From NCBI GenBank assembly GCA_963822445.1, contig CAWGHO010000003.1:1312001-1376000 (forward strand): DNA of 64,000 nucleotides. Direction: 5' to 3'. This DNA comes from an uncultured Acidobacteriota bacterium. Lineage in GTDB: Bacteria > Acidobacteriota > Thermoanaerobaculia > Gp7-AA8. Shown piece by piece: positions 9,001 through 45,218 of this stretch; position 1 is the stretch's first letter, and every line of letters starts with the position of its first letter. A program made the translations under genes and the position numbers. Under the pieces are notes generated by a model that searched no databases, was not told where the DNA came from, and worked only from the letters and a program-made list of their open reading frames with translations.

Positions 9001-12000
9001 GCCGAAGAGACCACTGAGGCCGAAGGTGCCGGCGCCGCCGGTGCCGTCGTACCCGAAGTCGTGATCGCCGGTGATGGCCAGCGAGGCCAGAGCACCGGCG
9101 AGGCTGAAGGAGCCGCCGTTGCGGAAGCCAACCGTGGTGCCGGCGTTCATCGAGCCGGCGATGGTGATCGTTCCACCGTCGACCTTCGGGGTCTGCGTAC
9201 CGGCGACGGCGTTCAGCGTCGCGCCGCTGTCGATGGTCAGACCGCTGCCGGCGATCGATGCTTCCTTCCAGGTGAGGATGCCCGTCAGCGTGACGCCGTT
9301 GAAGGTCATCGTGTTCGCGCCGCGCAGCATCAGCACGCCGGTCGTCGGCGCGGCGATGTTGCCGGCGAAGCTCGCCGCGCTGTTGACGTCGTGCGTGCCG
9401 TTGCCGATGAAGCTCGCGCCGGTCAGGAAGGTCGCGCCGTTGCTGAAGCGAACGGTCGCGCCAGCCGCCGCGTTGAACGTGCCGTCGCTCGTGATCGGCG
9501 AAGTGATCTCGATGATTCCGCTGTCGGACTGGATCGTGCCCGAGCCGCTGAGCGTCGCGCCGCCGCCGAGGGACATCGGCAGCGAGCCGCCGCTCTTGAG
9601 GATCGTTCCGGAGTTGTCGATCGAGGCGACGAGGCCGACGCCGTCCCAGCGGAAGTCGCGATCGTCCTGGATGTCGACGAGACCGCCGATGTCCATCGAG
9701 GAGCCGTTGGTGAAATGGACGGCGGCGCCCTGGAGCTCGAGCGTGCCGTTGTTCTGCCACGCCAGTCCGTCAGCGATCTTCACCGTGCCGCCGCTGATGG
9801 TGGTGATGACCGTTCCCGGCGGGGTCTGCAGGGTGTTGCCGATGAACGTGGCGTCCTTCCACTCCAGATTGCCGGTGAAGGTGGCCGTGGTCCAGGTGAT
9901 GTTCGCGATCGCGTCGATCCGGAAGATGGTCGCGCTCGCGGAGATCGAGCCCTTGAGCTCGACCGCGCTGTTGATGAGGATCGTGCCCGTGCCGGTGAAG
10001 TCGGTGCCGGTCTCGAAGGTGCCGCCGGTCGAGAACTGCATCGTGGCGCCGTTGAGCACCTGGAAGGTTTGCGAGGCCGCGGGGTTCGCGGAGATCCTGC
10101 GGCCGCTGGTGGCGCTGCCAATGATGAAGCCGGCGGTGGTGATGTCGCTGGTGATGTTCAGCGTCCCCGACTCGCCGCTGATGAAGCCGATGTTGTTCAG
10201 CTCCGCGCCGCCGCCGAGCGAGCTCAGTCCCGCCCCGGCGATCTTCTTGATGATGCCGCTGTCGTTGTTGTCGATCTGAACGATGGCGCCTGCGCCGTTC
10301 CACATCAGGTCGAAATCGCCGTTGATGTTGATCGTCCCGTCGTTGTTCAGCGATGCCCCGTTTGACAGATGGAGGCTGGCCGCGTTGAGGTTGATCGTGC
10401 CGTCGTTGACGAGCGGCGAGAACTCGATGGTGTGGGTGACTGCAGTGGCGATGTTGAGAATCGACCCGTTGGAGATGGTCAGGCCCGCGGAGATCGTTCC
10501 GCTGTTCCAGGCCATCGTCCCGTCGACGGTGAGGTCGAGGGAGCCCCAGAGATTGGCGTTGAGCTGAATGTCGTTGATCGTCGCGCTGACGTCGACGGTC
10601 ACGTCGTGATTGACGACGACGTTGTCCCACGCGTTGGGAACGACGCCGCCCTGCCAGGTGGCCGTGCTCGACCAGTTGCCCGGACTCTGCGTCTGAATGG
10701 TCTGGGGCAGGGCGACGGTGAAGGACTTGAAGCTGGTGCCGATGGTGGAGGCGGTGACGCTGATCGTGCCCGTGGTCGCTCCGGCGGGGACGGTGGCGTA
10801 GATCTCGGTGTCCCCGCTGATCCCGAAGCCGGGGTCGGAGACGCCGTTGAACTTCACGTCGGTCGCGCCGGTGAAGTTCGAGCCGTAGAGGGTGACCGCG
10901 GTTCCGGTCGCGCCAATGGTCGGCGTGAAGCTGGCCACGGACGGATCAGTCGCGCCCCATTGCTGAGCGATGCCGGCGCCCCATTCCGTGGCGTAACTCG
11001 CCACCCCATTCACCTCGGCGAAAAGATTCGTCGTGTCGACCCAGCCCGCGGGAAACGTGGGAGTGGTTCCGAAGTCGCGAATGGGGACGAACGTCCGGAT
11101 GTCGCCACTCCAGTTGAGATTCGGCCAGTAGTACTTCAGGTCGACCGTGGACGGATCGCCGCTGAGGTTCCAGAGGAAGTTCACGCGTGACGTCGAGGTG
11201 ACGTCGGTGACCAGCACGTTGATCGTAGCCGCGGAGGCGGAGGTGATCTCGATCGGCGCGTATCCACCGGAGAGATCGCTGATGGTCTCGAACCTGCGCA
11301 TCTGTCCGGCGGGAATGGCGATGGAGAGGTTGCCCTGCACGCCGCCGAAGGTCCGGCTGATCGTTCCTGTCGAGGCAACGGTCAGCTTCCGCGGCGACTC
11401 GATCACGATGTTGCCGCCGCCGCTCAGATCCACGAGGTTGGTGACGGTGAGGTCGTAGCCGGCGAACGAGTCGAGCTCCATCCCGTAAGTGCCGGTGATG
11501 CGAAGAGTGGGAATCGAGATCGCGGCGGTGGACGCGCCGCTCAGCTCGCCCCACCACGAGGAGGCGGTGATCCAGAGCTCGCCGGTCGTGCCGCCGTTGA
11601 AAGCGCCGTCGATGATCAGGTAGGCGGCGATCTTCAGAATGCCGCTGTTCAGCTCGAGCGTGCCGGGCGTGTCGATGAGGACGACGTCCTGCGAGTCGAT
11701 CGCGAAGCTGCCGAGATTGAAGGTGCCGTCGAGGATGAACAGCTCGTCGGCGACGCTGGCGTTGCCGGCCAGCGTCGCCGTGCCGGAGGATTTGTCGATG
11801 GTCAGATCTTCGTACGCCGTGCCGCGGACGATCTGCGCGCCGGTGCCGTTGTAGGTGACGCCGGAGGAGTTGCTGACGAACGTGCCGGTGTGCAGAAAGT
11901 CGCCGCCGATCTCGAGCAGGCCAAGGCTCAGCACCAGCGCGCCATTGCCGGTCACGTCGCCGGTCACCACGGCGCCCCTGCTATTGAGGTCCAACGTGGC

Positions 12001-14244
12001 GAGGCCCGGTCCGTTGACGATGGCCAGCGATGCAGCGTTCAGCGCCGCAGGCGCGAAGCCGCTCAGAGTCTTGGTGGCGGCGGTGGCGCCGGTGGTGACG
12101 ATCACATGCCCGTAGAGCGGGGTGATGTCGATGATCTGGTTGCCGTCGGCCTCGTAGATGACGGTGCTGGTCGGATCGGTGATGTGCGTGCCGGCCGGCA
12201 TCGTCGCGCCGATGCGCAGGGTGGTGTTCGCGCCGAGGTTGACCGTGCCGTTGCTGGTGAGGGTGAAGCCGCCGTCGAAGAGCGTGCCGGCGGTGAGGGT
12301 GAGGATCGTCGCGGTGGCGGCGCCGCCGAGCGTGGCCGTGCCTGCGCTCTTGTTGATGGTCAGCGCGTCGTACAGCGTGCCGCGGATGGTCTGGGCATTC
12401 CCGCCGGAGAAGGTGATGTCGTAAGTCGGGGTGATCGTTCCGGAGAAGGCGGTGTTGCTTCCCTCGAGGATGACCAGGCCTCCGGCGCTCTTGGTGATCT
12501 CCCCCGCGCCGATGAGCGAGCCGTCGATGGTGAGGGTGTTGCTGCCGATGTCGAAGACGACCGTGGAATTGTTCTGATCGACTTCGAGCGAGCCGTTGAT
12601 CGAGATCGAACCGCTCGCGGTCTTGGTCACGTTCACCGCCGGCAGTCCGAACGCGGTGATGGTCAGGTTCTCGTAAAGAATGTTGGCGATGGTCTGGTTC
12701 GCACGGGCGTCGTAAGTGATGGTGCTGGTCGGAGAGAGGGCGTAGCTCTGGAAGACCGGCAGGGACGTGCCGTTCCCCGGTTGCGCGCCGGACGTGGTGC
12801 CGATGCGCAGCACCGCCCCGGCATTCATGAGCAGCGTGCCGCTGGTTCCCGGCCCTGTGATCTGGTAACCCTGGTCTTCGAGATAGCCGTCGATGCTGAG
12901 GTTGCCGTTGATGGTGGTGACGCCGCCGAGAAGGCGCGTTTCGAGCGCGCCGGTCGTGGTGAGATGGTGGTAGGTCGTGCCACGAACCGCGACGGGCGTG
13001 CCGGTGTAGTTGACGGTGTTTCCGCCGGCGCTGGCGTTGAAGGTGCCGACGGTGATCTGCCCTTCGACGTTCAGCGTGCCCGTCGAGCCCTGATTCCACG
13101 TGCCGCCCCCGGCGAGACCGGAGGCGTCGGTGAGCGTGATCGTGCCGTTGTTGAGGACCGATCCCGCAACGGTGATCGTGTTGGTGAGGGTCAGCGATTC
13201 GCCGGAGGGGATCTCGCGCGGCGTGCCGGTATCGAAGTACACCGGCGCGTTGATCGTGCCCAGTCCGATGAGCTGCGCGCCGGTGGTGCCGGGGAGGGTG
13301 AGGTCGGCCGTGCCGTTGATCGTTCCGGCGACGGTAGCGGTCCTGGTGACGGTCATGCCGAACGAGGACAGGTCGAGGACGCCCAGAACGGTCAAGTTGT
13401 TGACCGTCACGGAAGCGGTGTCGACGGTGACGGTGTGGCTGCCGTTGATCTGGACGTCGTCGATGCTGGTCGGGACCAGGCCGTTGTTCCAGGTCGACGG
13501 CGAGCTCCAGTTGCCGGAAGCGATGCTGGTGATCGGGCCGTCGGCCTGCGCCGCGAAGTGCGCGGCGATGCGCGCAGGGGAGAGAGCCGTGTTGTAGATC
13601 GCGACTTCATCGACCGCTCCGTTGAGGAAGCGGCCGGGGTTCTGGCCCATCCCGATGCGTACGTCGCCGGCGAGGTCGATGGAGGTGAACGTGCTGGCGT
13701 TCGAGCCGGTCTGCACGCCGTCGACGTAGAGCTTGGAGCCGCCGGTGGTGACGACGAGGACGACGTGATGCCACGCCGCCGGGGAGTCGGGAACGCTGCT
13801 GAGGTTCTGCTGGCTGCCGTCGAGATAGAGCTCGCAGAAACCGGTGCCGGCCTGCAGATGAACGAAGTCGGTCGTGGTGGCCGCGACGATGGCCTGGGTG
13901 CCGTTGGGATTGTCGACGTGGACCCAGGCCTCGATGGTGATCGCCGAGCCGCCGCCCCAGTTGCCGGGAAGCTGGACGTAGCTGGAGCCGCCGTCGAACG
14001 CGGCGGCGGTGGTGGCGCTGCCGAGGGCGCCGGCTGTCAGGATGACGTTGTTGTACGTGCCGTGGAGGCTGTTCCCGGAGATGTCGGTGGCAGTTGCGCC
14101 GGACGCGTCGTCGAGCGGGTAGTAGGCGACCGGGTTGTCGGACAGAACGACGGCGCGGTATTCACCGGAGGCTGCGAAGAGGGGGGTGGTCAGCAGCGCC
14201 GCCGCGACCAGCACAACCAAAGCACGACTGAACACACGGCTCAT
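1..14244 (-). CDS. Giant secreted surface protein/adhesin (>4748 aa, 3' end outside window): signal peptide, 2x LamG, about 7x IPT/TIG, 4 beta-helix modules, 2x DUF11, start of a parallel beta-helix domain
   Basis: ATG at 14244 after GGAGC RBS reads MSRVFSRALVVLVAAALLTTPLFAASGEYRAVVLSDNPVAYYPLDDASG. The same frame reads ...HVIRGLAIYGFAG at positions 39-1. The ORF track lists no stop-terminated ORF in this frame, consistent with a continuous ORF. LamG motifs (ITIEAWV...WHHVVLV...LYVDG...NGAVDEVAIYNTALS) at ~14160-13560 and ~8090-7460. Modules open with GNWS..TW..G.VP caps. DUF11-like ADLAVTK/NNGPS at ~1040-330. Confidence 0.93.
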   Translation of the reverse strand, partial: MSRVFSRALVVLVAAALLTTPLFAASGEYRAVVLSDNPVAYYPLDDASGATATDISGNSLHGTYNNVILTAGALGSATTAAAFDGGSSYVQLPGNWGGGSAITIEAWVHVDNPNGTQAIVAATTTDFVHLQAGTGFCELYLDGSQQNLSSVPDSPAAWHHVVLVVTTGGSKLYVDGVQTGSNASTFTSIDLAGDVRIGMGQNPGRFLNGAVDEVAIYNTALSPARIAAHFAAQADGPITSIASGNWSSPSTWNNGLVPTSIDDVQINGSHTVTVDTASVTVNNLTVLGVLDLSSFGMTVTRTATVAGTINGTADLTLPGTTGAQLIGLGTINAPVYFDTGTPREIPSGESLTLTNTITVAGSVLNNGTITLTDASGLAGGGTWNQGSTGTLNVEGQITVGTFNASAGGNTVNYTGTPVAVRGTTYHHLTTTGALETRLLGGVTTINGNLSIDGYLEDQGYQITGPGTSGTLLMNAGAVLRIGTTSGAQPGNGTSLPVFQSYALSPTSTITYDARANQTIANILYENLTITAFGLPAVNVTKTASGSISINGSLEVDQNNSTVVFDIGSNTLTIDGSLIGAGEITKSAGGLVILEGSNTAFSGTITPTYDITFSGGNAQTIRGTLYDALTINKSAGTATLGGAATATILTLTAGTLFDGGFTLTSNGTVNLGANTTLRIGATMPAGTHITDPTSTVIYEADGNQIIDITPLYGHVIVTTGATAATKTLSGFAPAALNAASLAIVNGPGLATLDLNSRGAVVTGDVTGNGALVLSLGLLEIGGDFLHTGTFVSNSSGVTYNGTGAQIVRGTAYEDLTIDKSSGTATLAGNASVADELFILDGTFNLGSFAIDSQDVVLIDTPGTLELNSGILKIAAYLIIDGAFNGGTTGELWITASSWWGELSGASTAAISIPTLRITGTYGMELDSFAGYDLTVTNLVDLSGGGNIVIESPRKLTVASTGTISRTFGGVQGNLSIAIPAGQMRRFETISDLSGGYAPIEITSASAATINVLVTDVTSTSRVNFLWNLSGDPSTVDLKYYWPNLNWSGDIRTFVPIRDFGTTPTFPAGWVDTTNLFAEVNGVASYATEWGAGIAQQWGATDPSVASFTPTIGATGTAVTLYGSNFTGATDVKFNGVSDPGFGISGDTEIYATVPAGATTGTISVTASTIGTSFKSFTVALPQTIQTQSPGNWSSTATWQGGVVPNAWDNVVVNHDVTVDVSATINDIQLNANLWGSLDLTVDGTMAWNSGTISAGLTISNGSILNIATAVTHTIEFSPLVNDGTINLNAASLHLSNGASLNNDGTININGDFDLMWNGAGAIVQIDNNDSGIIKKIAGAGLSSLGGGAELNNIGFISGESGTLNITSDITTAGFIIGSATSGRRISANPAASQTFQVLNGATMQFSTGGTFETGTDFTGTGTILINSAVELKGSISASATIFRIDAIANITWTTATFTGNLEWKDATFIGNTLQTPPGTVITTISGGTVKIADGLAWQNNGTLELQGAAVHFTNGSSMDIGGLVDIQDDRDFRWDGVGLVASIDNSGTILKSGGSLPMSLGGGATLSGSGTIQSDSGIIEITSPITSDGTFNAAAGATVRFSNGATFLTGASFIGNGTHDVNSAASFAGNIAAPTTGVLMLRGANTMTFNGVTLTGILTWKEASIAGSGLTIDSGATLNAVAGTQTPKVDGGTITIAGSMNAGTTVGFRNGGSFSLAGALASLAITGDHDFGYDGTGGAGTFGLSGLFGKTGGTGTSNVHCGGVCTNTATGTIGAATGILAFPSGLTSNGTLKFPINGPTPLTDFGRIAVTGTVTLSGTSTPEVNIGYVPDGGTAFQVLTFGGRSGDFITKNYTFAGTRTLAETYNANDLTLTASGPTITTLSPMSGGLTGGTAVTITGTGFTGTTPGENFTGTVKFDTTFATPVLWQSATELTATSPAHAAGAVNVTVTNANTEAHTKLNAFTYNASSPTITALSVTSGTVNGGTYTEISGTNLSSVTQVQFGASNATILSTSPILKVRTPAGAGTVNVTVTNPDGSDTLTSAFSYAAALCDITTSGVVSWFRGEGDATDGAGGTNGTNNGGYAAGRVGQAFALNGTQHVSVPDSVWSRPAPNVTIEGWVKFNSVPVGNYAMLFGKTAGTGTFESYGVSYKDNLLYFGVGGPGGITYKTTAFTPSTGVWYHVALTFDDAANDIRLYVDGQLALSAAELASIAYDTHPLTIGAEYENESLAYFFNGSIDEVSVYNRALSAAEVLAIYDADDAGKCYPAAPTVLSINPTSGTTAGGTGVTIAGSSMSGASVTVGNPISIGTNTQSQITATTVATASGTYNVDVTTAAGTGSLTNGFAFIAATTYTSVTNGAWNNPATWGAGSFPQSYDSAVINHDVALDSNRSVTNVTFNGSGTRLSGAFTLTVTGGMTWNGGDLGAALVLDTGSISTITGATTRYSAGGITNNGTVTFDMTGTYTQHTSNFTNNGTFNLQSDATWLRFNSTSFLNTATATFNKTLATGTSTWQGTFSNAGTMNLGAGTLNFTETFGNTNLVNVTAGTLKLSGSGSSSGTFATGAGTGIVEYSAGSHTFSGAFTGSGKLRGSGATVTVSGTASNVELTAGTMTGTSAFAINDSLQWTAGDFVSDALTLASTCTTTISGASPRVVATVVNNGTINFDVTGAFTLNTGNFTNNGTFNLQSNATWLRFNAPIFTNASGGNFNKTTAAGTSTWQGTFVNDGTMTLGAGTLTFSESFSNNNLVTVNSGTLNLNGSGTSTGTFDTVAGTVVAYNAGSHTFGGLQSSGGKLQVTGGTVSANGAAANNLELTGGTINGTALTVDTTFLWSGGDFTGGGVLILGGGCTTTITGANNRAMERVATNDGIVNFDMTGSFTLQTGSITNNAIFNLLSNATWLRFNATTFTNATGANFNKTTGTGSSTWQGTFVNDGTMTLGAGTLTFSESFSNNNQVTINSGALNLNGSGTSSGTFTTAAGTAVAYNAGGSTFNATQTGLGSLQVSGATVTTSGTATVANLDFSSGTMNGAGTMSVSDTFNWTGGSTSGAGTMTLGLLCATTISGSSPLVMERILNNQGSIVYTSTGGLTFQTGNFNNSGTVDLQVDGTWSRFNPSWVMNTGTIKKTAGAGTFTMGVNSDNSGGIVDVESGAINYTQSIAGNASSHYKFGVSSATTAGTMTFTGTPNIGGAQLTAYVVGPFVPQGGQTWSVMSPVSGTFGTTSTSFGAGRSFGVSYPGSSSVLLTASGPTITSLTPNSGTEFGGTSVVIVGTGFAATPTVTFDGVVASVTFNSPTQITATTPAFGGTAPAAIDVVVTNPDGQPATSVGGFTYLATSGPTVSALRPNNANVAGGTTIYIDGTALDTVTSIVFDSTPATIVNQTATLLEVIAPAHAAGNIVVSVTNPAGSANGAFAYNDNWDVARDFSRTVNPTGPWSYGWSATRGSAFNLFTTSTTHGSGYDYWYVGAAPTAFHNPTASPITHSGDVTVPAGTFGGHSGAAGENSVVRWTAPAAGQWQISGAFTGVDQAPTTTDVAVLIGGIEQFSGNVTAYNVPQSFVLRRSLNLGDVVELTVGYGNGNYLDDSTGIAATITPLTGPVVTVTGIAPAIGSPAGGQSVTISGTNFHAGAGVTFDGVAATSITVVNTSTITATTPAHAAGTVDVVVTHPDSADATLTNGYVYSADPHWLNPVSGNWNTAANWSTGVVPTSAQTAYLDATGTYTVTMSGINQTVTGVHVGAGATLSVGSATLILTGPSTIAATGALSVTGTLRFEPGASLTNNGTLTLAGATVATPAGIGSTLTNNATFNITGNVSFGSFNTSGSVGVTINNTGTGTITKSAGAGTTGFDVNWALNNSGALTVTDGTLRLDGSGNTNTGPITITSPGIFEVGTGSFSSTAGSLSGTGTFRSAGGTSTISSTYNVGTAITAGTLTFDTAATTALLTASGGTIAGTGSLTLAGTTHTWTGSTVVQTALTINPGNTLTMSGGAFVFDTGSNLTNNGTFNVTGGGFNSRASIGATWLNPGVVNLSNDVQFGSWNTSGAVGTTIVNSGNINKTAGAATSTLDSTWAVSNGATGTIAITSGILRLEGSGSTNAGAITVTSPGGFEVAGGSFANTTGSIAGSGSFRMTGGTATIANTYAPGATLVSAGNVFFNTAATTNLLTVTGGTISGSGGLTLAGPSPSHTWAGSAELRTSLTIDPGNTLTLSSGAINFETGSNLTNNGVVNVTGGSLNSRASIGAIFANGGTFTLAGDIPFGSYNTSGAVGVTINNSGTLNKTVGTGASAFDTNWVVNNTGTIDIISGTLQFAQNYTQTGTGALTLKLAGTGAGQFSRLTTSAQANLAGTLNINYGIGYTPANADTYQILSFGSRSGDFTTKNGLTFTGGTLNYGLNPTNITLTASAAAALSITKTAAANVAANEVFTYTITVVNAGPDPGSNVSVTDVMQAGMVPSNLSAPSFTCTGTTTLTCTAATLAAGTHTITFDVTAPSAPQAISNVANMTASNDSSGGDNTSTAVTNVGAAQADLAVTKSAAVGTVALGGTVTWNLNVLNNGPSPATSVVITDTLPAGQTVTGATPSTGSCNTVGSVVTCNVGTIGVGNTVTVAINATANEGGTRTNSVAASATEADPNNANDVGTATVTITGDNTLVVTNSNASGTGSLFQAMLDADAGVCPSPCTITFNIATLTPIAGPLPVADVLNLTIDGTTQPGYNATTRVPLIEIDGTSANPGSSGLNVDGDSHVIRGLAIYGFAG
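5400..6900 (-). repeat. Three internal ~620-bp (~207 aa) repeats within the giant gene
   Basis: Near-identical blocks (gttgaagcgcagccaggt; gagcgtgcccgcgccgag) recur at offsets ~5401, ~6022 and ~6640. A second set with ~666-bp period lies at ~1490, ~2150 and ~2810. Confidence 0.8.
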
Positions 14245-15261: not shown

Positions 15262-16371
15262 GTGAACCGGACCACGGCACTCCTGCTCGAGAAATGGGCG
15301 ATCTGGATCTCCCTGATCGGCATCCTCTTTCTTCTCCGCCATCTGTTCCCGATCTTCTTCCTTACGTTCGTGCTCTCGTACATGGGCAATACGGCCGTGA
15401 ATGCGCTTTCGAAACGCTTCCCGCGCCGCAGACTGAACGTGGTCCTGGTTTACGCGACGTTTCTGGCGGTGCTCGCCGGCGTGACCGTGCTGGTCGTGCC
15501 CAGGATGCTCAACGAGGCCAGGGGGCTGGCGCGGCAATACATCGCTGCCGAGGCGGCTCGGGAGGAGGGTGGGGAGACATTCATCCGCCGGGAAGCGCGC
15601 GACCTCGTGGATTCGGTCGGTCTGGGCATCGCCGGTACGGAGACGTTTCAGGATTTCAGGCAGTCCGACGCGTACGTGGCCATCGTCGACCGGCTCGCGG
15701 AGGCGATGACGACGACCAGCCGCCGGATCACTGTCGAGGTCACGCAATTTGCGAACGTCGCGCTGATCCTGGCCTTTCAATTCGTCCTGGCGATGATCCT
15801 GTCGTTCGTGCTGATCTGGGACCTGCCGAAGATGAAGGAACGGCTCCGGCAGTTCTCGAAAGGCCGGACCGCTGAAATTTACGCCGAGATCACTCCCAGC
15901 CTCAGCGCGTTCGGAACGATGCTCGGCCGCGCGTTCGAGGCCCAGAGTGTAGTGGCCGTGGTCAACGCGATTCTCTCCGTAATCGTGTTCCTTCTCCTCG
16001 GCCTCCCCTCAATCGCGCTCCTGGCCATGATCGTGTTCGTCTGTTCGTACATCCCGGTCATGGGCATGATCCTGTCGACGCTGCCGGCAGCGTTTCTCGC
16101 ATTGAAGATAGGCGGCGTGACCCGTGTGCTGTGGCTCGTCGCCGGCATCCTGATCATTCACGCGATCGAGGCGTACATGCTCAATCCGCTGATCTATGGA
16201 CGGCACCTGCGGCTGCATCCGGTGGCCGTTTTGCTGATCCTGATCATTGCCGAACACCTTTTCGGCGTATGGGGACTGCTCCTGGGCGTTCCCATCGCGG
16301 CGTTTGTGGTGAAGTACGTGATCGAGGGGCAGCCGATCGGGCCTGCGGCGGAAGGTTCGGTAGCGGCCTAG
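15262..16371 (+). CDS. AI-2E family transporter
   Basis: Multi-TM 369 aa protein with SYIPVMG, IEAYMLNPLIYGRHLRLHP and FGVWGLLLGVP motifs. Confidence 0.9.
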   Translation: MNRTTALLLEKWAIWISLIGILFLLRHLFPIFFLTFVLSYMGNTAVNALSKRFPRRRLNVVLVYATFLAVLAGVTVLVVPRMLNEARGLARQYIAAEAAREEGGETFIRREARDLVDSVGLGIAGTETFQDFRQSDAYVAIVDRLAEAMTTTSRRITVEVTQFANVALILAFQFVLAMILSFVLIWDLPKMKERLRQFSKGRTAEIYAEITPSLSAFGTMLGRAFEAQSVVAVVNAILSVIVFLLLGLPSIALLAMIVFVCSYIPVMGMILSTLPAAFLALKIGGVTRVLWLVAGILIIHAIEAYMLNPLIYGRHLRLHPVAVLLILIIAEHLFGVWGLLLGVPIAAFVVKYVIEGQPIGPAAEGSVAA

Positions 16372-16425
16372 GTTTTCGCTCGGTCGCGGTCACAGAAATG
16401 AGAGCTCTTTTAGTCGGTGTCTCCG
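16318..16425. repeat. Direct repeat copy 1 (108 bp): convergent 3' ends of the AI-2E and archaemetzincin genes
   Basis: gtgatcgaggggcagccgatcggg...tagtcggtgtctccg matches 18328-18435 with scattered substitutions. Confidence 0.95.
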
Positions 16426-17625
16426 TTAGCGTTTCTTAGCGTGCTCCTCGAGGTCTTCCAATGTGCCCTTGAAGGTGAATGTGATTGTCGATCCACCGTC
16501 CTTGACCTCCTGCTCGAGCGACACACGCGACCAGCCGTGAGGAAGTTGCTCGAACTTCGTCAGCCAGAGAGGGTAGGAACCGAACGTGTCGTCGAAGTTC
16601 GCGTTCCACGAATCAGTCGTCACGTAAATGAACGGACGCTTTCCGGTGAGCTGCCGGATTCGGTCGAGGTATCGATGCAAGCGGGCACTGAGGTCTTTCG
16701 TTGGTTGATTGCCGCTTTGAAGCGGCGATACGTTCACTCCTAACAGCACGTCGTACTCCGACGGTTTGACAGTCTGGATGAATCGGTCCGCTTGTGCTAT
16801 CGGATCGCGTATGTCGTATAACACCTGATAGGCTCCGCCAATCAGATTTCGAGAGCGCACTTCCTCCCGCATTCGCGAAAACTCCGGTTGATCGGCATCG
16901 ACGAAGGCGAAGGACACATCTCGTAGCTCCGGATTGGCCCAATCACGGTTCTTCATATATCCGACGTCGACTCCCACGGGGTTGATTGTCGACACCAGTG
17001 GTGGCGACGGTGAAGGCGCGCGTCCGGTATTGGACGTATCGGTCCCTACATCGGCGCCCACCCATTTCTTCGTGGCCATGAAGACCAAGGCCAGCGCCAG
17101 CATCACCGCGAGAGCTGCAAAGACGGTCCGTTGCGTGAACAGCGGCGACGGGTTCCGCTTCTTCCGTCGCACGATCTCCTTACGGATTGACTTGGCGAGA
17201 TGCTCATAATCGGCACGCCAGTGACGGTCCGTCATCTCCATCATCTGCCGGCCCAGGAACGACTTTAACTCGCCCGGCAGAACTGCGGCACTTGGCAACG
17301 TGGCGTCGTTGACGAGCACTGGAATGATCCGCACGTCGCGTTCGAGCGCGCTGGAGATCTCGCGGCGCACGATATCCTCCGGATCGGCCAGCCGAGCCGG
17401 CCGCCAGTTGGTACCGATCATGACTATGAGCGCCGCACACGATTCGAGCCGCTCATCGATGACCTGCTTCCAGTCGTCCCCTGCGTCAATGCCACCGCCG
17501 CGGTCGAAGAACACGTTGTCTTCGCCGAAGTCATTGCACAAGGCGTCGTTCAATCGCCCGGCGTACGCTCCAGTATCGTCGCGTCGATAGCAGATGAAGA
17601 TTTGCCGGGCCGGTCTAGCTCGCAT
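16426..17625 (-). CDS. TIR_2 domain - TM helix - degenerate GH25 (lysozyme-like) domain fusion
   Basis: IFICYRRDD...VFFD...DIVRREISSALERDVRIIPVLV (TIR); TM VFAALAVMLALALVFMA; GVDVGY...DW...FAFV...IGGAY...QADRF...TGKRPFIY...YPLWL (GH25). Probable ATG 17625 lies inside track ORF 16426..17829. Confidence 0.85.
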   Translation of the reverse strand: MRARPARQIFICYRRDDTGAYAGRLNDALCNDFGEDNVFFDRGGGIDAGDDWKQVIDERLESCAALIVMIGTNWRPARLADPEDIVRREISSALERDVRIIPVLVNDATLPSAAVLPGELKSFLGRQMMEMTDRHWRADYEHLAKSIRKEIVRRKKRNPSPLFTQRTVFAALAVMLALALVFMATKKWVGADVGTDTSNTGRAPSPSPPLVSTINPVGVDVGYMKNRDWANPELRDVSFAFVDADQPEFSRMREEVRSRNLIGGAYQVLYDIRDPIAQADRFIQTVKPSEYDVLLGVNVSPLQSGNQPTKDLSARLHRYLDRIRQLTGKRPFIYVTTDSWNANFDDTFGSYPLWLTKFEQLPHGWSRVSLEQEVKDGGSTITFTFKGTLEDLEEHAKKR

Positions 17626-17702
17626 CAGGGTTTCGGTTCGACGTTTACCACATTGTCGATCGGAATCACAGTTCAGGGAACCTGCGGAGGACGATCGGGC
17701 CG

Positions 17703-17770
17703 ACGGATGATGTAGGCGCTTTAGCGCCGCACCGAAGCCGAGCCGCGACGCCTTCTGGCAGTAGTTGAGC
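17703..17770 (+). mobile_element. Truncated right arm of the attC-like element
   Basis: Small hairpin GGCGCTTTAGCGCC, then accgaagccg...CTTCTGGCAGTA-GTTGAGC, matching the 3' ends of the full copies. Confidence 0.6.
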
Positions 17771-17907
17771 GCCGGCCGAACGGAACCACTTCTTCGTGGC
17801 CTCAGCGAGTTCCGGTCGGCGGGGCTCAAGCGTCACGACGATCGGGATGCTCACTTTCCTTCTCGCGCAGGTACTTGCACAAAGCCGCCAGGGCCACCAA
17901 GAAATAG

Positions 17908-18282
17908 TCAAGGCTCGAAATCAGGGTCACCCAGTTCAATGTAGCGGCGGAAGCGTCCGTCTACAAAGATAATCTCGCAGTCGAAGCTGTCCGTCACACC
18001 CGATGGGTCAAGGCAGGCCTGCAGCGTGGTGGGAGTCTTATCGCTACCGAGGCTGACCAATTAGTAGCTTCGACCTTTCGTCGTGACGACGTATGGGGTA
18101 CCCCACGGATCCTCGATTGGAAGAGCTGTACCGAGCAATCTATTCGCGTGCGCCACGCCCGAGAGCGTCGGATACCCATTTACTGTCGACAGAACTGCCG
18201 CCTTCCAGGACCGTCGTCGAACGAGCACGTAACCAGCCACCGCAGGAATGATCACGAGCGCTATCAAGACCGCGAAAATCAA
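17908..18282 (-). pseudogene. T2SS GspG/pseudopilin-like gene interrupted by an in-frame stop
   Basis: N-terminal TM, then LPIEDPWGTPY...RSY*LVSLGSD...FDCEIIFVDGRF. TAA at 18061-18063 interrupts; the frame continues to TGA at 17908. Confidence 0.6.
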
Positions 18283-18327
18283 AGGATATGTGATGGCCGA
18301 ATATTAGCGTGGCGTACCGGTCTGGCA

Positions 18328-18435
18328 GTGATCGAGGGCCAGCCGATTGGGCCTGCAGCGGAAGGTTCGGTACCTGCCTAGGTTTTCACTCGCTCGCGGT
18401 TACAGAAATGAGAGCTCTTGTAGTCGGTGTCTCCG
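18328..18435. repeat. Direct repeat copy 2 (108 bp)
   Basis: gtgatcgagggccagccgattggg...tagtcggtgtctccg; supplies the intact 3' end of the archaemetzincin gene. Confidence 0.95.
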
Positions 18436-18980
18436 AGGGAGTTCGAAAAGTGCATGACGCACGTTCGATCGGGACAGTGGGCGAATCCGAAGGTGTGGCC
18501 CAACTCGTGAGCGGTCTCCTTGACGACCCGCTCGCGAAGCCGGCCAGGATCTTCGGGCCATCCTCGGAATGACTCGCGAAGACGCGGCAGAGCGACCACT
18601 GCGAACCGGCCCGGCTTCTGGGCCTGGCCGAAGATGAAGTTGAGCCCTGGCGCGTACGCATCGGCATCGATGATTCCGACGATCCGATCGGCATCCGCAA
18701 CGTCCTGCCGCGCGAGGTCTTCGAGAAGAGCGGTCCCTCGATATTGCCGCCGCGACGGATCGAGCGCTTGTTCGGGGAGAGGCACCGCGGCTCCGACGAC
18801 GACGTCCCGTTTCACGATCGCCGGTAACTCTCTCTGCAGATGGCTCAGAACATCCTGCGGAACTGGTCCAATGGGGATGATGACGATGCGGCGCGACACC
18901 TGGCGATCGTCGCCCGAACAGCCGATGAGGGCAAGAACGACGACTACGAACCGCGCAATGCGCCCGGGGATGTTCGTCAT
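18378..18980 (-). CDS. Archaemetzincin family Zn-metalloprotease (M54), lipoprotein-like
   Basis: KETAHELGHTFGFAHCPDRTCVMHFSNS and LNFIFGQA motifs; lipobox-like LIGC. Confidence 0.9.
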   Translation of the reverse strand: MTNIPGRIARFVVVVLALIGCSGDDRQVSRRIVIIPIGPVPQDVLSHLQRELPAIVKRDVVVGAAVPLPEQALDPSRRQYRGTALLEDLARQDVADADRIVGIIDADAYAPGLNFIFGQAQKPGRFAVVALPRLRESFRGWPEDPGRLRERVVKETAHELGHTFGFAHCPDRTCVMHFSNSLGDTDYKSSHFCNRERVKT

Positions 18981-19084
18981 GGAATGATGACGCTTACGGA
19001 CGATTACAGGTTTCGTCCTGCCTCGGCCACCGCAAGAAATCGATATAACAACCATCCGTTGGTGATGGGGCGATCAGCACCGCA

Positions 19085-21482: not shown

Positions 21483-21650
21483 GGAACCGCGAGTTTAATC
21501 TCCGGTCCCGCCTCGCCACGGATTCACATTGGTTACAACCTGCTACGTGCGCTGGGCTGCCCGATCGGATCACAGGAACGACCGACGCTGAGCATTGCGA
21601 GTACGCGGAATTCATGGAAGCGTGCAATACGCGTCACCTGTAATTCGTCC

Positions 21651-21836
21651 GGCCGACGTCTGTCGCCTAAGCTGCGGCGAGCCCCACGCGCGTGCGGGCA
21701 GAGCGGCACGCCGGTCGCCGCGATTGACGTCGACCGATCTGCGAGCGGCGTGCCGCCGCGCATCTTGAAAGAATCGAGGGGCTTCAGCCCCGGGCGCGGT
21801 AAACGGGTCGCTGACGGTTGCTGGCAGGACTTGGGC
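21651..21836 (+). mobile_element. attC-like element (degenerate copy)
   Basis: ggccgacgtctgtcgcctaagctgcggcg...ggggcttcagcccc...ttgctggcaggacttgggc; homologous to the other copies but with decayed core sites. Confidence 0.7.
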
Positions 21837-21907
21837 GGCTTTGTCACGGTCTACCCGGACTTGATGTTTCGGGTAGGGATAAATCGTCCGGCGTCACTCC
21901 TATCGAT

Positions 21908-22939
21908 GTGAGCGATGACATCGATCGAAGCTCCATCGCCGAGCAGATCCGCGATGTGCTTCAGAACAACTACAAAGACGTGCGCCACGTTGAGCTTGAG
22001 ACCGCCGCGGCAATCGCGAACCGCGTCATGGGTTGGGCGAAAGTCTTCGGCTTCTTTGCCGGTATTCCACTCGTGCTAATCGCAGTGTGGCTTGGCTGGA
22101 TCGGTTACAAGTCGATCAGCGATTTGGAAAAGCTCCAGGACCAGATTGCCGCGTTGCAGACCGACGTCATATCCAAACAGGCGCAGCTAGCAAAGCTAAA
22201 GGAGCTCGACTCGCTCGAACAGCGGCTAACAAGTCTTGCCACTCGAGTGAAATCGCTCGAAGTGAAATTCAGCGGCTCGGCGGACGTCGGAACCGACGCA
22301 AGGCGCCGTATCGAAGACGTCCTCACTCGATATCAGGCTCATTTCGCCTCCCTCGGGGTCCGTTTCGCCGCGAATCAGGAAACGAACATCCGCATTGAGA
22401 AGTCAGACGTGATGGCCGAGAAGAATTCACTCGCGTATTACGATCCGGAGAAAAATGAGATGGTCGTCAGTGAAGACTATATCGCTAACGACGACGTCGT
22501 GCTCCGCGAGTATACGCACCTCGTTCTCGCGCTCGCAAATCCAGACGCAAAAGCAATGGGCACGCCGAATCTCTATGCACTCGAATCTGGTCTCGCTGAC
22601 TACTTTTCGCGAAGCTTCGCTGGCTCTCCCGCATACGAATCGCTCCCTGAACGCACTCTCGCGAACGACTTGAAAATTCGATCTGCGCGCGACTTCGCTG
22701 ACGCGCACACCGTCGGATTGGCTTGGGGTGCATTCGCGTGGGACTTGCGAGAAAAACTGGGCACAGAAGCCACCGACAGGCTCCTCTTGGAGGTCTGGAA
22801 AACGCCCGGGTGGAGTCGCGCGTCCAATCTCGTCGAGAGCTTTGTAACCGCGCTCTTCAATGTTGATGACGTCTTCAACGAAGGCGCGAACGAGAAATTA
22901 CTCCGGACTCTGCTTGTGAAACACGGCGTCGTGGACTGA
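21908..22939 (+). CDS. Cassette-borne membrane-anchored coiled-coil protein with a degenerate M4/M36-like peptidase domain (start uncertain)
   Basis: TM, coiled coil, then AYYD...DDVVLREYTHLVL...ALESGLADYF (HEXXH appears as REYTH). Confidence 0.65.
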   Translation: MSDDIDRSSIAEQIRDVLQNNYKDVRHVELETAAAIANRVMGWAKVFGFFAGIPLVLIAVWLGWIGYKSISDLEKLQDQIAALQTDVISKQAQLAKLKELDSLEQRLTSLATRVKSLEVKFSGSADVGTDARRRIEDVLTRYQAHFASLGVRFAANQETNIRIEKSDVMAEKNSLAYYDPEKNEMVVSEDYIANDDVVLREYTHLVLALANPDAKAMGTPNLYALESGLADYFSRSFAGSPAYESLPERTLANDLKIRSARDFADAHTVGLAWGAFAWDLREKLGTEATDRLLLEVWKTPGWSRASNLVESFVTALFNVDDVFNEGANEKLLRTLLVKHGVVD

Positions 22940-22985
22940 TACGGCCGAGGGATGTCGAGTCGTGTACTCTGCTCGTCTCGGGTCC

Positions 22986-23180
22986 GCCCAACGTCTATCG
23001 CCTCAGCGGCGGCGAGGCCCCGCGTGCCTACCGGGAAGCGGCGCGCCGCTTGCCGCAACTAACGAGATGTCGGCGGGCGCGATCTGCAAGCGGCGTGACG
23101 CCGTGCATCTTGGGACGAAACAGGGGCTTCAGCCCCGGGTCAGCGAACGGCCCGCCGTCCGCTGCTGGCAGTAGTTAGGC
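22986..23180 (+). mobile_element. attC-like recombination site (195 bp)
   Basis: Inverse core GCCCAAC and core GTTAGGC; outer stem GCCTCAGCGGCGGCG/CGCCGTCCGCTGCTGGC with bulged bases; lies 46 bp after a gene stop. Confidence 0.85.
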
Positions 23181-23224
23181 GGCGCCTATACTTGAATCCG
23201 TTCGCGGAGGCGCGACGTTAAATC

Positions 23225-24034
23225 ATGACAGATTCTTCAGTTCTGGAGACGGTTGTGGATGCGGCTCGTCGCCCGGTGATTCCGCTGTTTGCCGCTCGTA
23301 GTCGCCGGCGTTTCGAACACGTCGGTTCCGCCGTTCTCGTCCGAACACGTGCACGTCGATTTGTGATCGTCACGGCCGGTCACGTGCTCGATAACGTAAT
23401 TCCAGATCCGCTTCTGACATGGGGCACGTCCGAGTCGGGTGCGATCCGCCTGCGGTACCGCGACGCGCTAACTAGTGAACCACGCTCGTTCAGACGCCGT
23501 GCCGATCGTGTCGACCTGGCAGCCTTCATCCTCGATGATCGTACAGCCGACAGGCTTAGTTCCATCGGTGCCGTTTTCGTGTCGGAACTCTTGTTCACCG
23601 ACCGTATCAACACTGAGGCGATCTACGCATTCGTAGGATACCCGCGCTCAGTGAACAAGGTTGACCGCGTTAAAACGGCCGGTGGACGCCTCCGGCAAAT
23701 GCTTCCAAATACCGCCGCGTTCATGCCGGCGCAGGCATCCGAACAAAGGGCGTACGAACTTGTGAACGCGATCGCAAGTGTGAACTTCGTTGCGCGGTTT
23801 GATCGTGATAACTCCCAGCGATACGACGACGCGCGAAGGCCTCTACCCGACCCCAACGGAATGAGCGGCGGAGCTGTGTATTGCTTCGGGAACTCCGTCG
23901 CCGATGATTGGTACGCACTCGATCATTTACAGCTTGTGGGTGTTGGCACGGAGTACCACCGACGCGAACGATTATTCGTCGCAGCGAACTCGCGTGCGGT
24001 TCAGCACTTGCTTCGCGCACTTGATCAAAGCTAA
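23225..24034 (+). CDS. Cassette-borne trypsin-like serine protease
   Basis: Catalytic triad motifs VTAGHV, VDLAAF and GMSGGAV. Confidence 0.75.
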   Translation: MTDSSVLETVVDAARRPVIPLFAARSRRRFEHVGSAVLVRTRARRFVIVTAGHVLDNVIPDPLLTWGTSESGAIRLRYRDALTSEPRSFRRRADRVDLAAFILDDRTADRLSSIGAVFVSELLFTDRINTEAIYAFVGYPRSVNKVDRVKTAGGRLRQMLPNTAAFMPAQASEQRAYELVNAIASVNFVARFDRDNSQRYDDARRPLPDPNGMSGGAVYCFGNSVADDWYALDHLQLVGVGTEYHRRERLFVAANSRAVQHLLRALDQS

Positions 24035-24144
24035 CGATCCGATCGCACGCGAACCGCAGCAGGAAATGACCTTGAGCGGCCTCCATGTTGGTCCATTCGC
24101 GGAGCTTCATGGAAGCGTGCGAAAACACAACTTTTGATTCGTCC

Positions 24145-24343
24145 GCCTAACGTCTGTCGCCTAAGCTGCGGCGGGTGCGCGAGTGCAACCGGCTGAGCGG
24201 CGCGGCCGTTGCCGCGACTAACGCCTTTTCAGGCAGGAGCGATCTGCAACGGCCGTGACGCCGCGCAGATTGGAGTCGGCCGAGTCGGCTCGGCCGACGG
24301 GCCACGGAGACAGCCCGCCGACAGCTTCTGGCAGTAGTTAGGC
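24145..24343 (+). mobile_element. attC-like recombination site (199 bp)
   Basis: Perfectly complementary GCCTAAC...GTTAGGC; stem GCCTAAGCTGCGGCGGG/CCCGCCGACAGCTTCTGGC. Confidence 0.85.
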
Positions 24344-24379
24344 GGCTCCATTCATACTAAACAGTGTCGTAAGCGATCC

Positions 24380-24895
24380 TTAACGCGAAATACTTTCCGG
24401 GAAACACTGAATGACGACCGCGAGCGCCACGTCCGCCACAGCCAGAACTACTGATAGCGCAACGTTCAAGCGAGCGGCGCGAAACGGGGCCGGCCATTGT
24501 GGACGAGGCGCAAGACGGAAGGGCTTGACCGTCGGATCGCCGTGATCGTCGCCGGTTCGGCGAAGTAATTCAGAAGGGACGCCTTGCCCGATGTACTTCT
24601 TCGAGAGCTCGTAACCAAGCCACGTGAGTAAGTGGCCGTTGGCATCTCGAATCTTCGCATCGCGGAGCATCATAAAGACGAGTGCGATCGTTAGAATCGC
24701 CGCGGCGACGAGTAACACCGCGGAGAGCCAGTCGGTTCGAAGAGAAAGTGCTCCACCGAGTGCACCGGCTTGAATCGCGAGTATTATTTGCACCCGACTC
24801 CACATGAGCGCGTCCTGATGACAAAAGTGCGCCATCAGAGTTGCGAACAGATTGGCGTCGGGCTCCGGTTTGTTTTCCGGTGATGCGTTGGTCAT
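24380..24895 (-). CDS. Hypothetical 3-TM membrane protein (cassette-like)
   Basis: 171 aa ORF with HQDALMWSRVQIILAIQAGAL and hydrophobic helices; lies between attC-like sites. Confidence 0.6.
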   Translation of the reverse strand: MTNASPENKPEPDANLFATLMAHFCHQDALMWSRVQIILAIQAGALGGALSLRTDWLSAVLLVAAAILTIALVFMMLRDAKIRDANGHLLTWLGYELSKKYIGQGVPSELLRRTGDDHGDPTVKPFRLAPRPQWPAPFRAARLNVALSVVLAVADVALAVVIQCFPESISR

Positions 24896-44076: not shown

Positions 44077-44218
44077 GCCTCACCGAAGTGGGGCATGGTA
44101 TACGAAGCGCCTTGGTCGACTGTCGCTTTCGCTTTGTCTCTCGCAACCATGTTTTGCGCGCAGGAATGTGGAAGCGACCGAGGCGATGACTTTGCGAGGG
44201 TTCTCTGTTCAACGTGTC

Positions 44219-44411
44219 GGCTAACGTCTATCGCCTCAGCGGCGGCGAGGCCCCGGAAGCATGCGGCAAAGCGGCGCGGCGCTTGCCGAAACTAACGAGA
44301 TGTCGGCGGGCGCGATCTGCAAGCGGCGTGACGCCGTGCATTCCACGACACGGCAGGCAGCTCGGCTGCCGGACCGAAGCCGGGCGCACCAGCTACAACG
44401 TGAAGTTAGGC
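44219..44411 (+). mobile_element. attC-like element (193 bp; divergent right arm)
   Basis: GGCTAACGTCTATCGCCTCAGCGGCGGCGAGG...GAAGTTAGGC; left two-thirds nearly identical to the 22986 copy. Confidence 0.8.
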
Positions 44412-44680
44412 CGACGTGATTACAGCGCTTCGAGTAACGGACGATCTCGCTTAGCCGCGCCTCTTCGTACGGCGGCGACGCCGCACCACGTCAGGCGTCG
44501 CGATTTGGTCCGGTTCCGCTTCGAAGCTCGTGCAATTTAGACATGCCTACTCGGTAGTACTCACGCTGCGAGCCCGACTGTTCGTGCGTCACCTCGGTGT
44601 TGCTGGCTCTGTCAGCTGGATGAGTCGGGACATGCGACTCACGCAACGCTGAATCAGGTTCGAGGTAGAATCCGGAGATC

Positions 44681-45213: not shown

Positions 45214-45218
45214 CCGCG

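Follow-up and report, generated by a model that had tools for sequence, protein, structure and literature searches.

Could a bacterium watch its own envelope with a receptor built from a cytoplasmic TIR domain and a disabled lysozyme? This question is raised by an open reading frame on the minus strand (16426..17625) of the window, the 64,000-nucleotide stretch of DNA analyzed here, which comes from an uncultured Acidobacteriota, a soil bacterium. The gene encodes 399 amino acids plus a stop codon, arranged as a TIR domain, a transmembrane (TM) helix, a linker, and a degenerate GH25 domain. The original prediction took the product for a one-component receptor that binds cell wall fragments outside the cell and activates its TIR domain inside. 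Pfam, AF2 modeling, Foldseek, and alignments bear out every detail of its description of the reading frame (TIR domain, Glu, TM helix, linker, and GH25 barrel), and its interpretation is partly supported. The coding start is an ATG; a longer TTG-initiated frame extends up to 17829, but homologs begin at the same MRA..IFICYRR position as the ATG frame. No public sequencing runs holding the locus, RNA runs included, are listed.

A TIR domain followed by one membrane helix

The N-terminal part of the protein (residues 9–141; 17203..17601, minus strand) is a TIR_2 domain with a SARM1-like fold. Both checks suggested for it at the outset, by HMM and by structure prediction, gave the same answer: the Pfam match has an E value of 2.3e-12 and scores 47.9 bits against a curated cut-off of 28, and the AF2 model, in which block pLDDT over the TIR is mostly 83–94 with one block at 71, superposes on SARM1 TIR structures in a Foldseek search of the PDB with TMt 0.87–0.90 and rmsd 1.5–1.8, the best match being 9mw2 (TMt 0.90, rmsd 1.5). 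Family profiles also match the SARM1 TIR (E 3.8e-14 and 3.7e-10), and by fold and profile together the closest solved structure is this NADase TIR. The Glu of the alphaC helix was said to be retained within DIVRREI (residues 84–90), and it is. Glu89 (codon 17359..17361, minus strand) falls on the DWVHKEI Glu of SARM1 (E642) when the two are aligned. All 19 of the 19 relatives that cover the TIR region have this Glu, and it is likewise invariant in alignment A4 (30 rows). The domain appears to be of the SARM1 type with a catalytic-type Glu; from this we infer NADase activity, of which retention of the Glu is in itself no proof.

The basic stretch RKEIVRRKKR leads, as originally described, into one hydrophobic helix (residues 165–185; 17071..17133, minus strand). 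The Kyte-Doolittle 19-mer maximum is 2.45 at residue 167, and the AF2 model, with a mean pLDDT of 81 over the whole protein, has a helix at residues 161–185. Beyond it lies the expected Pro-rich linker, a Pro/Thr/Ser-rich stretch (residues 186–215; 16981..17070, minus strand) that is disordered, with AF2 pLDDT below 50 at residues 186–212. An N-in/C-out topology fits because there are seven Lys and Arg residues before the helix and three after it, the protein has no signal peptide, and the beta-A strand of the TIR begins at residue 9. Hydropathy, positive-inside counts, and the AF2 helix agree, and from these signals we predict a single-pass N-in/C-out protein. Since the organism is a diderm, "outside" here means the periplasm, beside the cell's own wall.

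A GH25 fold without its catalytic residues

The C-terminal domain (residues 216–399; 16429..16980, minus strand) was described as a GH25-like barrel, and Pfam, Foldseek, and profile comparison all place it there. Glyco_hydro_25 matches residues 225–362 with an E value of 3.6e-12 and 47.4 bits against a cut-off of 27, Foldseek against the PDB returns GH25 muramidases at TMt 0.69–0.75 (6zm8 and 2x8r at 0.75, 1jfx at 0.74), and the family profile matches 2wag at E 5.8e-31 and 1jfx at E 4e-28.

The active site tells a different story. The statement that the first Asp is kept while the DxE motif reads N-V-S proved right: D220 (in GVDVG) is the sole family acid position retained, and N298-V299-S300 (16726..16734, minus strand) stands in place of DxE, a placement given both by alignment to LALDIE of 4kru and by alignment of the family profile to VLDIEH of 1jfx. 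The WQY and DxN motifs, on which the original prediction was silent, are missing as well, WQY being replaced by EQE and DxN by I-T-F (residues 381–383), with Ile381 at the Asp position. The protein has lost three of the family's four acids and lacks the combination of N-terminal Asp, DxE, and DxN Asp expected of an active muramidase. We predict from these residue states that the ectodomain is non-hydrolytic, and we would not class the protein with the active GH25 enzymes.

Conservation of the degenerate state

Loss of DxE could have been a one-off decay in this sequence, and a survey of homologs for this loss had been proposed. We compared 20 TIR-GH25 proteins, drawn in part from the best 150 of 30,651 matches, a sample from which many members may be missing. 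Ten of the 20 lack DxE, WQY, and DxN, and these ten form one side of a branch with support of 100/98, so that the loss is a clade-wide, conserved state. The sister of this clade, P0012, keeps all motifs, and DxE is also kept by six deeper members. The complete set of D, DxE, WQ, and D(x)N is found in seven of the surveyed relatives, so the muramidase was probably still active in the ancestral fusion. Three more have partial sets (P0121 with N-V-E, P0019 with D-F-A, and P0132 with A-V-K). One member that keeps DxE, P0146, has no TM segment (maximum hydropathy 0.89), which would put both of its domains on one side of the membrane.

Among the seven closest members, the dead domain is 65–74% identical whereas the linker is 34–49% identical, a difference that points to continuing selection on the dead domain. 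The dead state extends to P0008, P0009, and P0124, which are only 36–39% identical to the query in the GH25 domain.

A word-index search with the GH25 part alone gave only six close relatives, and a profile search of genome contigs with alignment A3 gave 38 loci, mostly in Actinomycetota MAGs, that match the TIR part only (query residues about 2–174) and include no full TIR-GH25 fusion.

Exchange of ectodomains among TIR relatives

The TIR domain is found with other partners. P0010 and P0011 are 79% identical to the query over the TIR region and have a RicinB lectin instead of GH25, and P0124 has a SPOR domain in addition to its degenerate GH25 domain. SPOR is a septal-wall targeting module. 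In other relatives with an N-terminal TIR, the TM helix is followed by PASTA, Peptidase_M15_4, TonB_C, CHASE2, or Peripla_BP_6/ANF_receptor, and FGE-sulfatase (FGS) domains occur within the TIR subfamily in P0107 and P0162. P0081 has a match to Phage_holin_2 (E 5.5e-07) that falls under the Pfam cut-off. In a crude hydropathy scan of the 113 best matches with an N-terminal TIR, the TIR is followed by one or more hydrophobic segments in 85, by more than one in 21, and by none in 28. The swaps for lectin, SPOR, PASTA, CHASE2, and periplasmic-binding modules fit a binding or sensing role for the position that GH25 occupies in the query.

An acquired gene that stands alone

The TIR-GH25 gene stands by itself in a 2,010-bp insert of low GC (58.3% against 64.4% for the genome) between 108-nt direct repeats. 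The left copy (16318..16425) comprises the 3' end of an AI-2E transporter gene and intergenic DNA and ends one base before the TIR-GH25 stop codon; the right copy (18328..18435) is 92% identical to it and contains the 3' end of an M54 peptidase gene. None of 18 genomes of the same genus has a DNA match to the gene, and the flanking AI-2E gene is present in 15 of these 18 at 67–76% nucleotide identity. In the five congener loci compared in search of the empty site, no other neighbor is syntenic with the AI-2E gene. The setting of the gene is accessory, mobile, and horizontally acquired.

How the gene arrived may be hinted at by a 66-nt integron attC remnant (17706..17771, minus strand; nhmmer E 6.5e-07) that lies 80 nt upstream of the start codon and covers roughly positions 1 to 70 (R'' arm) of this genome's attC family. 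The HMM that found it was built from 68 array attCs and is specific to the attC family of the host genome. The remnant does not fold into a hairpin (z −0.37), no attC follows the stop codon, and the reading frame is not bounded by the functional attC that an integron cassette would have; full attCs lie 4 kb from the gene. An integron-cassette origin is plausible on this evidence. The assignment to mobile cargo in the original prediction is supported in part, by the repeat-bracketed 2-kb insert, its GC of 58% against 64%, the lack of a match in 18 congeners, and the attC remnant. Phage-defense genes are reported in integron cassettes (10.1101/2024.07.02.601719; PMC12614218), and with this locus Acidobacteriota gain another case of a TIR gene that lies with mobile DNA of the integron type.

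Two other candidates in this region were set aside. The remnant read together with GTCGAAC, 17 nt before the ATG, as a short complete attC folds no better than shuffled sequence, and an Xoo5 Rfam match over the remnant (searched in 16000–19000) is sub-threshold at 22 bits against 50.

The neighbors in the window are the AI-2E transporter, the M54 peptidase, and a 73-aa open reading frame, and the gene has no adjacent defense genes, ThsA-type effector, or cyclase partner there. At a metagenome locus with the gene (L024), the neighbors differ, being a beta-propeller and an EAL protein, and no downstream partner is conserved between the two. Neither L024 nor a further metagenome locus, L025, has a match to the attC HMM, whose reach does not include other attC types.

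A possible wall sensor and its alternatives

Hydropathy, Pfam, AF2, and alignments support the architecture that the original prediction assumed, in which a cytoplasmic TIR that keeps its Glu is joined by one TM helix to an extracytoplasmic GH25 fold that has lost its acids. On these grounds we predict, as a tentative call that falls just short of even, a pseudo-muramidase that binds peptidoglycan in the periplasm and is coupled to a TIR NADase in the cytoplasm. The protein would cross the inner membrane once, with a cytoplasmic N terminus and a periplasmic C terminus, and its GH25 fold would be a periplasmic pseudo-enzyme that has kept the muramidase barrel and lost the acids of hydrolysis. 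Since those acids are lost, the ectodomain most likely binds without cutting, and would hold peptidoglycan glycan strands or muropeptides intact. A change in its ligand state, caused perhaps by wall damage or by fragments that a phage lysin, a predator, or the wall-degrading effector of a competitor sets free, might cluster or reorient the protein across its single TM helix. A SARM1-type TIR would cleave NAD+ once TIR domains come together, and their self-association could then consume NAD+ or yield an ADP-ribose-derived signal, arresting the attacked cell. Prediction of the full-length homodimer scored 0.00 and points neither way. The identity of the ligand, the direction of signaling, the NADase activity, and the biological role are all inferred. 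Several observations count against the sensor: an ancestral fusion with an active muramidase would suit an effector or wall-remodeling role at least as well, P0146 would have both domains on one side of the membrane, and the protein fits no defense-system model. A diderm ectodomain also lies permanently next to the wall of its own cell, which makes a simple detector of "foreign fragments" less straightforward, as something would have to set "signal" apart from "rest".

A conserved, non-catalytic ectodomain would be expected equally if the dead GH25 domain serves to tether or localize the protein to the wall, at sites of synthesis or at the septum, while the TIR NADase is triggered from within by some signal in the cytoplasm, for instance a phage protein. 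The SPOR domain added in P0124 is consistent with tethering, the lack of any hydrophobic segment in 28 of the 113 best N-terminal-TIR matches (crude scan) suggests that the subfamily can work without an ectodomain, and a single-gene TIR-STAND-TPR protein is validated as anti-phage in PMC9122126. We nevertheless think this rather unlikely, as tethering leaves unexplained why the ectodomain is exchanged with classical ligand-sensing modules (CHASE2, Peripla_BP_6/ANF_receptor, and PASTA) and gives no reason for anchoring an enzyme with a soluble substrate. If signaling instead ran from the inside out, sensing or oligomerization by the TIR in the ancestral fusions would have clustered an active, tethered muramidase for controlled autolysis or abortive lysis, and the query clade would be an inactivated, weakened, or repurposed remnant, acting, if at all, through its TIR alone. 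The seven complete and three partial catalytic sets in the survey fit such a history, as do holin-like or multi-pass regions in some N-terminal-TIR relatives (P0081; 21 of the 113 with more than one segment). We regard this reading as distinctly improbable: the dead domain is conserved well above the linker across seven clusters, and the dead state is old, reaching P0008, P0009, and P0124, which together argue for a retained function rather than decay, and the closest relatives of the TIR, in which a lectin with no enzymatic function stands in for GH25, speak against an effector role.

Last, the protein may have no part in immunity and may report the state of the cell's own wall, its turnover, growth, or stress, with the TIR as a physiological signaling enzyme or scaffold. 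The ectodomain of a diderm faces its own peptidoglycan, no defense genes adjoin the gene, and PASTA- and CHASE2-type ectodomains, which are typical of housekeeping signal transducers, occur in relatives. This would sit poorly with an accessory gene that was not found in 18 congeners, is low in GC, and lies in a repeat-bracketed insert beside an attC remnant, or with the lack of a cognate downstream partner conserved between the two loci, and we consider it very improbable. A cell wall sensor that couples binding in the periplasm to the TIR, built by analogy like an inverted Toll-like receptor, is a plausible reading, and the family supplies natural controls in its intact and dead ectodomains and in its lectin swaps on a near-identical TIR, which make the sensor idea directly testable.

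The protein may belong to a large class of bacterial "inverted Toll-like receptors", not described so far, that watch the envelope and answer wall attack by NAD+ depletion. In each, a cytoplasmic NADase-type TIR at the N terminus would be joined through one TM helix to a recognition module, periplasmic or extracellular, that can be exchanged for another (dead GH25, SPOR, PASTA, M15 peptidase, ricin lectin, CHASE2, or periplasmic-binding fold). This is a possibility that we would on balance doubt, and with the same reserve we suggest, by analogy, that the dead-muramidase ectodomain would be to bacteria what the dead-amidase PGRP receptors are to animals.

Comparison with known systems

The query shares the TIR fold and the conserved Glu with SARM1-type and bacterial NADase TIRs (Thoeris ThsB, CBASS/Pycsar effectors, and single-gene TIR defenses) and differs from them in that its TIR comes first in the chain, ahead of a TM helix and of a domain outside the cytoplasm. 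It is not a Thoeris protein: ThsB_TIR scores 15.3 bits against 21.2, there is no adjacent effector gene, PADLOC ThsB matches at 20 bits (E 5.5e-05), and NCBIfam Thoeris III ThcB4 reaches 31 bits where 220 are required. None of the defense-system models in PADLOC and NCBIfam assigns the protein to a system. In the bacterial TIR immunity known to us, infection is sensed within the cell. A TIR enzyme linked across the membrane to a pseudo-enzyme that binds the wall would mean that bacteria also couple surface or periplasmic pattern recognition to TIR output.

The openly available literature searched, which includes PMC7075850, 10.64898/2025.12.03.692087, PMC9122126, and PMC8195603, contains no description of a TIR-TM-lysozyme or of a TIR with a periplasmic sensor. 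The closest proposal, in PMC8195603, is computational, of lectin-fold sensors fused to TIR effectors; as in the query subfamily, these pair a glycan-binding-type module with a TIR effector, but they are proposed to be intracellular and often STAND NTPase-regulated, whereas the module of the query lies beyond a TM helix and is muramidase-derived.

With GH25 muramidases (Cellosyl 1jfx, Bacillus anthracis 2wag, phage phiSM101 Psm 4kru, and fungal 6zm8 and 2x8r) the query has the barrel fold in common, but not the residues of catalysis beyond the first Asp. Such a change has a parallel in Drosophila PGRP-LC and PGRP-SA, animal peptidoglycan-recognition receptors on dead hydrolase folds. PGRP and Toll-like receptors combine, like the query, a dead wall-hydrolase fold or other ectodomain with one TM helix and a cytoplasmic immune domain (TIR in TLRs). 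The likeness is an analogy that implies no homology of ectodomains: in the query the TIR is N-terminal, giving the opposite polarity, the ectodomain derives from a GH25 muramidase and not an amidase, and the whole is one bacterial polypeptide. If the proposed sensor is right, its logic would be shared with animal Toll and PGRP systems, and what innate immunity has in common across kingdoms, by descent or by convergence, would reach to the architecture of the receptor.

Domain architecture and catalytic residues

The minus-strand ORF at 16426..17625 encodes 399 residues from an ATG. An alternative, longer TTG-initiated frame extends to 17829; the ATG is the likely start because M-R-A...IFICYRR opens the six closest homologues at the same position. 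The original prediction described an N-terminal TIR domain, one transmembrane (TM) helix after a basic stretch, and a GH25-like barrel that keeps its first Asp and lacks its DxE motif, and this description proved accurate on all points. Pfam assigns residues 9-141 to TIR_2 (E 2.3e-12, 47.9 bits, cut-off 28) and residues 225-362 to Glyco_hydro_25 (E 3.6e-12, 47.4 bits, cut-off 27). An AlphaFold2 model made from an 18-row family alignment (mean pLDDT 81) runs from a TIR alpha/beta unit through a long helix (136-157), a second helix (161-185) and a disordered segment (186-212) to an alpha/beta barrel. Foldseek matches in the PDB form two sets, one of TIR domains from SARM1, an NAD+ hydrolase (TMt 0.87-0.90, rmsd 1.5-1.8), and one of GH25 muramidases (TMt 0.75 for 6zm8 and 2x8r, 0.74 for 1jfx, 0.69 for 4kru). 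The 21-residue hydrophobic helix (Kyte-Doolittle maximum 2.45) directly follows the basic stretch RKEIVRRKKR, with 7 K/R before it and 3 after. Since the TIR beta-A strand begins at residue 9, there is no signal peptide. A neighboring TonB_C gene fits a diderm host.

TIR domains bearing the Glu that is catalytic in SARM1 (E642, within D-W-V-H-K-E-I) cleave NAD+ on self-association. A profile of 30 N-terminal-TIR relatives, whose matches include an entry titled 'NAD+-bound Sarm1 E642A', aligns the family motif D-f-V-R-r-E-i to this segment, making E89 the query counterpart. E89 is invariant in the 30-row alignment and in 19/19 TIR-GH25 relatives having the region. GH25 enzymes, in turn, depend on their acid residues for cleavage of the MurNAc-GlcNAc bond. 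The GH25 family profile aligns to Cellosyl (1jfx) as G-v-D-l-s with GIDVS, v-v-D-v-E-e with VLDIEH, W-q with WQY, and k-v-D-t with DVDRN, and at these four places the query reads GVDVG, GVNVSP, SLEQEV, and TITFTF. D220 is thus kept, while substitutions have removed the DxE pair (now N-V-S), the WQY motif, and the DxN Asp. A pairwise alignment with 2wag moves the DxE register by two residues, which makes no difference because LLGVNVSPLQ contains no acidic residue.

Conservation of the degenerate domain

The original prediction also called for a survey of DxE loss among homologues. Two database searches (one covering the best 150 of 30,651 matches) and a Pfam scan of two-stretch matches gave 20 TIR-GH25 proteins, one N-truncated and one C-truncated. 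Seven (P0012, P0122, P0123, P0129, P0136, P0146, and P0260) keep the first Asp, DxE, WQ, and last Asp, counting as intact P0129, in which Leu replaces the first Asp. Three retain a partial set: P0121 (N-V-E), P0132 (A-V-K), and P0019 (D-F-A), the last carrying a Thermoanaerobaculia name. The remaining 10/20, P0001-P0009 and P0124, have none of DxE. A maximum-likelihood tree separates these ten from the others by a branch with 100/98 support, and their sister, P0012, keeps all motifs, so a single loss is enough to explain them on this midpoint-rooted tree. A hydrophobic 19-mer scoring at least 2.0 is present in 19/20 members, P0146 being the exception. In the seven closest members, the TIR is 77-87% identical to that of the query and the dead GH25 65-74%, compared with 34-49% for the TM-plus-linker, and the dead domain is therefore far more conserved than unconstrained sequence of the same proteins. 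Together, these data describe a SARM1-like TIR, predicted to be cytoplasmic, that a single helix connects to a conserved muramidase fold predicted to be non-catalytic and periplasmic.

Other ectodomains in the TIR subfamily

Two relatives, P0010 and P0011, with TIR domains 79% identical to that of the query, have a ricin-type lectin downstream of the TM helix, and P0124 has a SPOR domain C-terminal to its degenerate GH25. In 20 proteins chosen from database matches, the domains following the TIR in distant members comprised PASTA, Peptidase_M15_4, TonB_C, Sel1, a PQQ propeller, PD40, FGE-sulfatase, CHASE2, and Peripla_BP_6/ANF_receptor. The TIR beta-A motif lies within the first 60 residues in 113 of the 120 best matches, and a crude hydropathy scan, whose rough threshold probably under-calls, found one hydrophobic segment after the TIR in 64 of these 113, several in 21, and none in 28. 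P0081, P0106, and 19 others have 3-7 such segments, not a single TM helix plus ectodomain, and P0081 gives a sub-threshold Phage_holin_2 match; these may constitute a separate, membrane-disrupting branch of the family.

A repeat-bracketed insert in attC-associated DNA

The TIR-GH25 gene stands alone at its locus, between an AI-2E family transporter gene (15262..16371, plus strand) and an M54 peptidase gene (18378..19055, minus strand). It is bracketed exactly by a direct repeat of 108 nt, whose copies at 16318-16425 and 18328-18435 are 92% identical and have a spacing of 2,010. The repeat spans the 3' ends of the transporter and peptidase genes, which converge and have overlapping stop codons (CCTAGG). 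Its length exceeds that of a usual target-site duplication, and it might stem from single-crossover integration of a circle bearing a related junction copy. The 2,010-bp insert has a GC content of 58.3% versus 64.4% for the genome. It also holds a minus-strand 73-aa ORF (18061..18282) with a single, N-terminal hydrophobic segment; it has neither a Pfam match nor a genomic paralogue, and its DPWGTPY motif is reminiscent of type II secretion pseudopilins. The transporter gene occurs in 15/18 same-genus genomes, and the TIR-GH25 gene has no DNA match in these 18, several of which are fragmented assemblies. On L024, the sole metagenome contig with flanks, the homologue adjoins a beta-propeller and an EAL protein, unlike the window neighbors, and the two loci share no conserved partner gene. 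About seven tandem palindromic units (L024:1690-1980, core GTGTAGCAATGCTACAC) lie immediately upstream of that homologue. Elsewhere in the window, a giant minus-strand open frame (1-14244, >4,748 aa) runs off the edge; its N-terminal 1,000 residues match Laminin_G_3 and, weakly, G8.

The stretch 17706-17786 recurs at ~25 places in the genome, and these matches revealed an integron. Its IntI gene lies at C2:2118113-2119048 (TIGR02249, 456 bits, cut-off 265); beyond it, on that strand, come ~70 attC sites, each roughly 225 nt long (GCCTAAC ... GTTAGGC) and spaced 1-3 kb apart over 105 kb. This locus, G000:C2:2118113-2226396, outside the window, is a large sedentary chromosomal integron; smaller attC clusters occur at C1:99-101 kb, C1:1228-1231 kb, C2:480-494 kb, and C3:159-160 kb. 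An HMM built from 68 of its attCs detects five complete sites in the window, at 21629-21843, 22969-23188, 24100-24354, and 44207-44412 on the minus strand and 45211-45418 on the plus strand. With no integrase nearby they are CALIN-like; GC is lowered in the stretches holding them, and the ORFs between them (21818-22939, 23225-24034, and 24380-24895) have no Pfam match. The same HMM also detects a remnant of 66 nt (17706-17771), which lies 80 nt upstream of the start of the TIR-GH25 gene. Whereas a complete attC forms a long hairpin (z -2.4), no hairpin folding is seen for the remnant (z -0.37). The surroundings are therefore attC-associated accessory DNA, yet the gene is not a bounded cassette. 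Its assignment to mobile cargo is supported in part, through this association, the low-GC repeat-bracketed insert, and the lack of a match in 18 congeners.

Possible functions of the fusion

The lectin swap and the SPOR addition suggest that binding is the property selected in the ectodomain, and the classical sensor modules that relatives carry at this position indicate that this TIR subfamily is often the cytoplasmic end of membrane receptors. On these two grounds, we tentatively favor an outside-in wall sensor, in which the ectodomain would read the wall from the outside of the membrane and the signal would pass inward to turn on a putative TIR NADase. In a diderm periplasm, such a sensor would have to tell the cell's own wall from a signal. 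Three other readings would also be compatible with these observations. If the ectodomain instead had an anchor role, the TIR would be triggered from the cytoplasm, a possibility we regard as unlikely. The seven catalytically intact relatives would suit descent, with decay, from an autolysin under TIR control, but the conservation of the dead domain argues against decay, and we consider this improbable. A housekeeping envelope signal fits poorly with an accessory gene, and we think it very doubtful.

Relation to known systems

By sequence, fold, and Glu, the query is a TIR_2 family member. The tests run for Thoeris membership came out negative, with ThsB-type models (PADLOC, NCBIfam) giving only weak matches far under curated scores. 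The other half has a GH25 fold but failed the catalytic-residue test and should therefore not be filed as a lysozyme. In the passages of open literature searched, we found no description of an N-terminal TIR followed by a TM helix and a wall-binding ectodomain. A TIR divergence survey mentions, without particulars, that prokaryotic architectures vary (PMC7075850), TIR proteins are among the listed contents of integron cassettes (PMC11089894), and a preprint from 2025 covers TIR signalling systems whose effectors are separate (10.64898/2025.12.03.692087). A computational study proposes lectin-fold intracellular sensors fused to TIR effectors (PMC8195603); unlike those proposed intracellular sensors, the module of the query lies beyond a TM helix.
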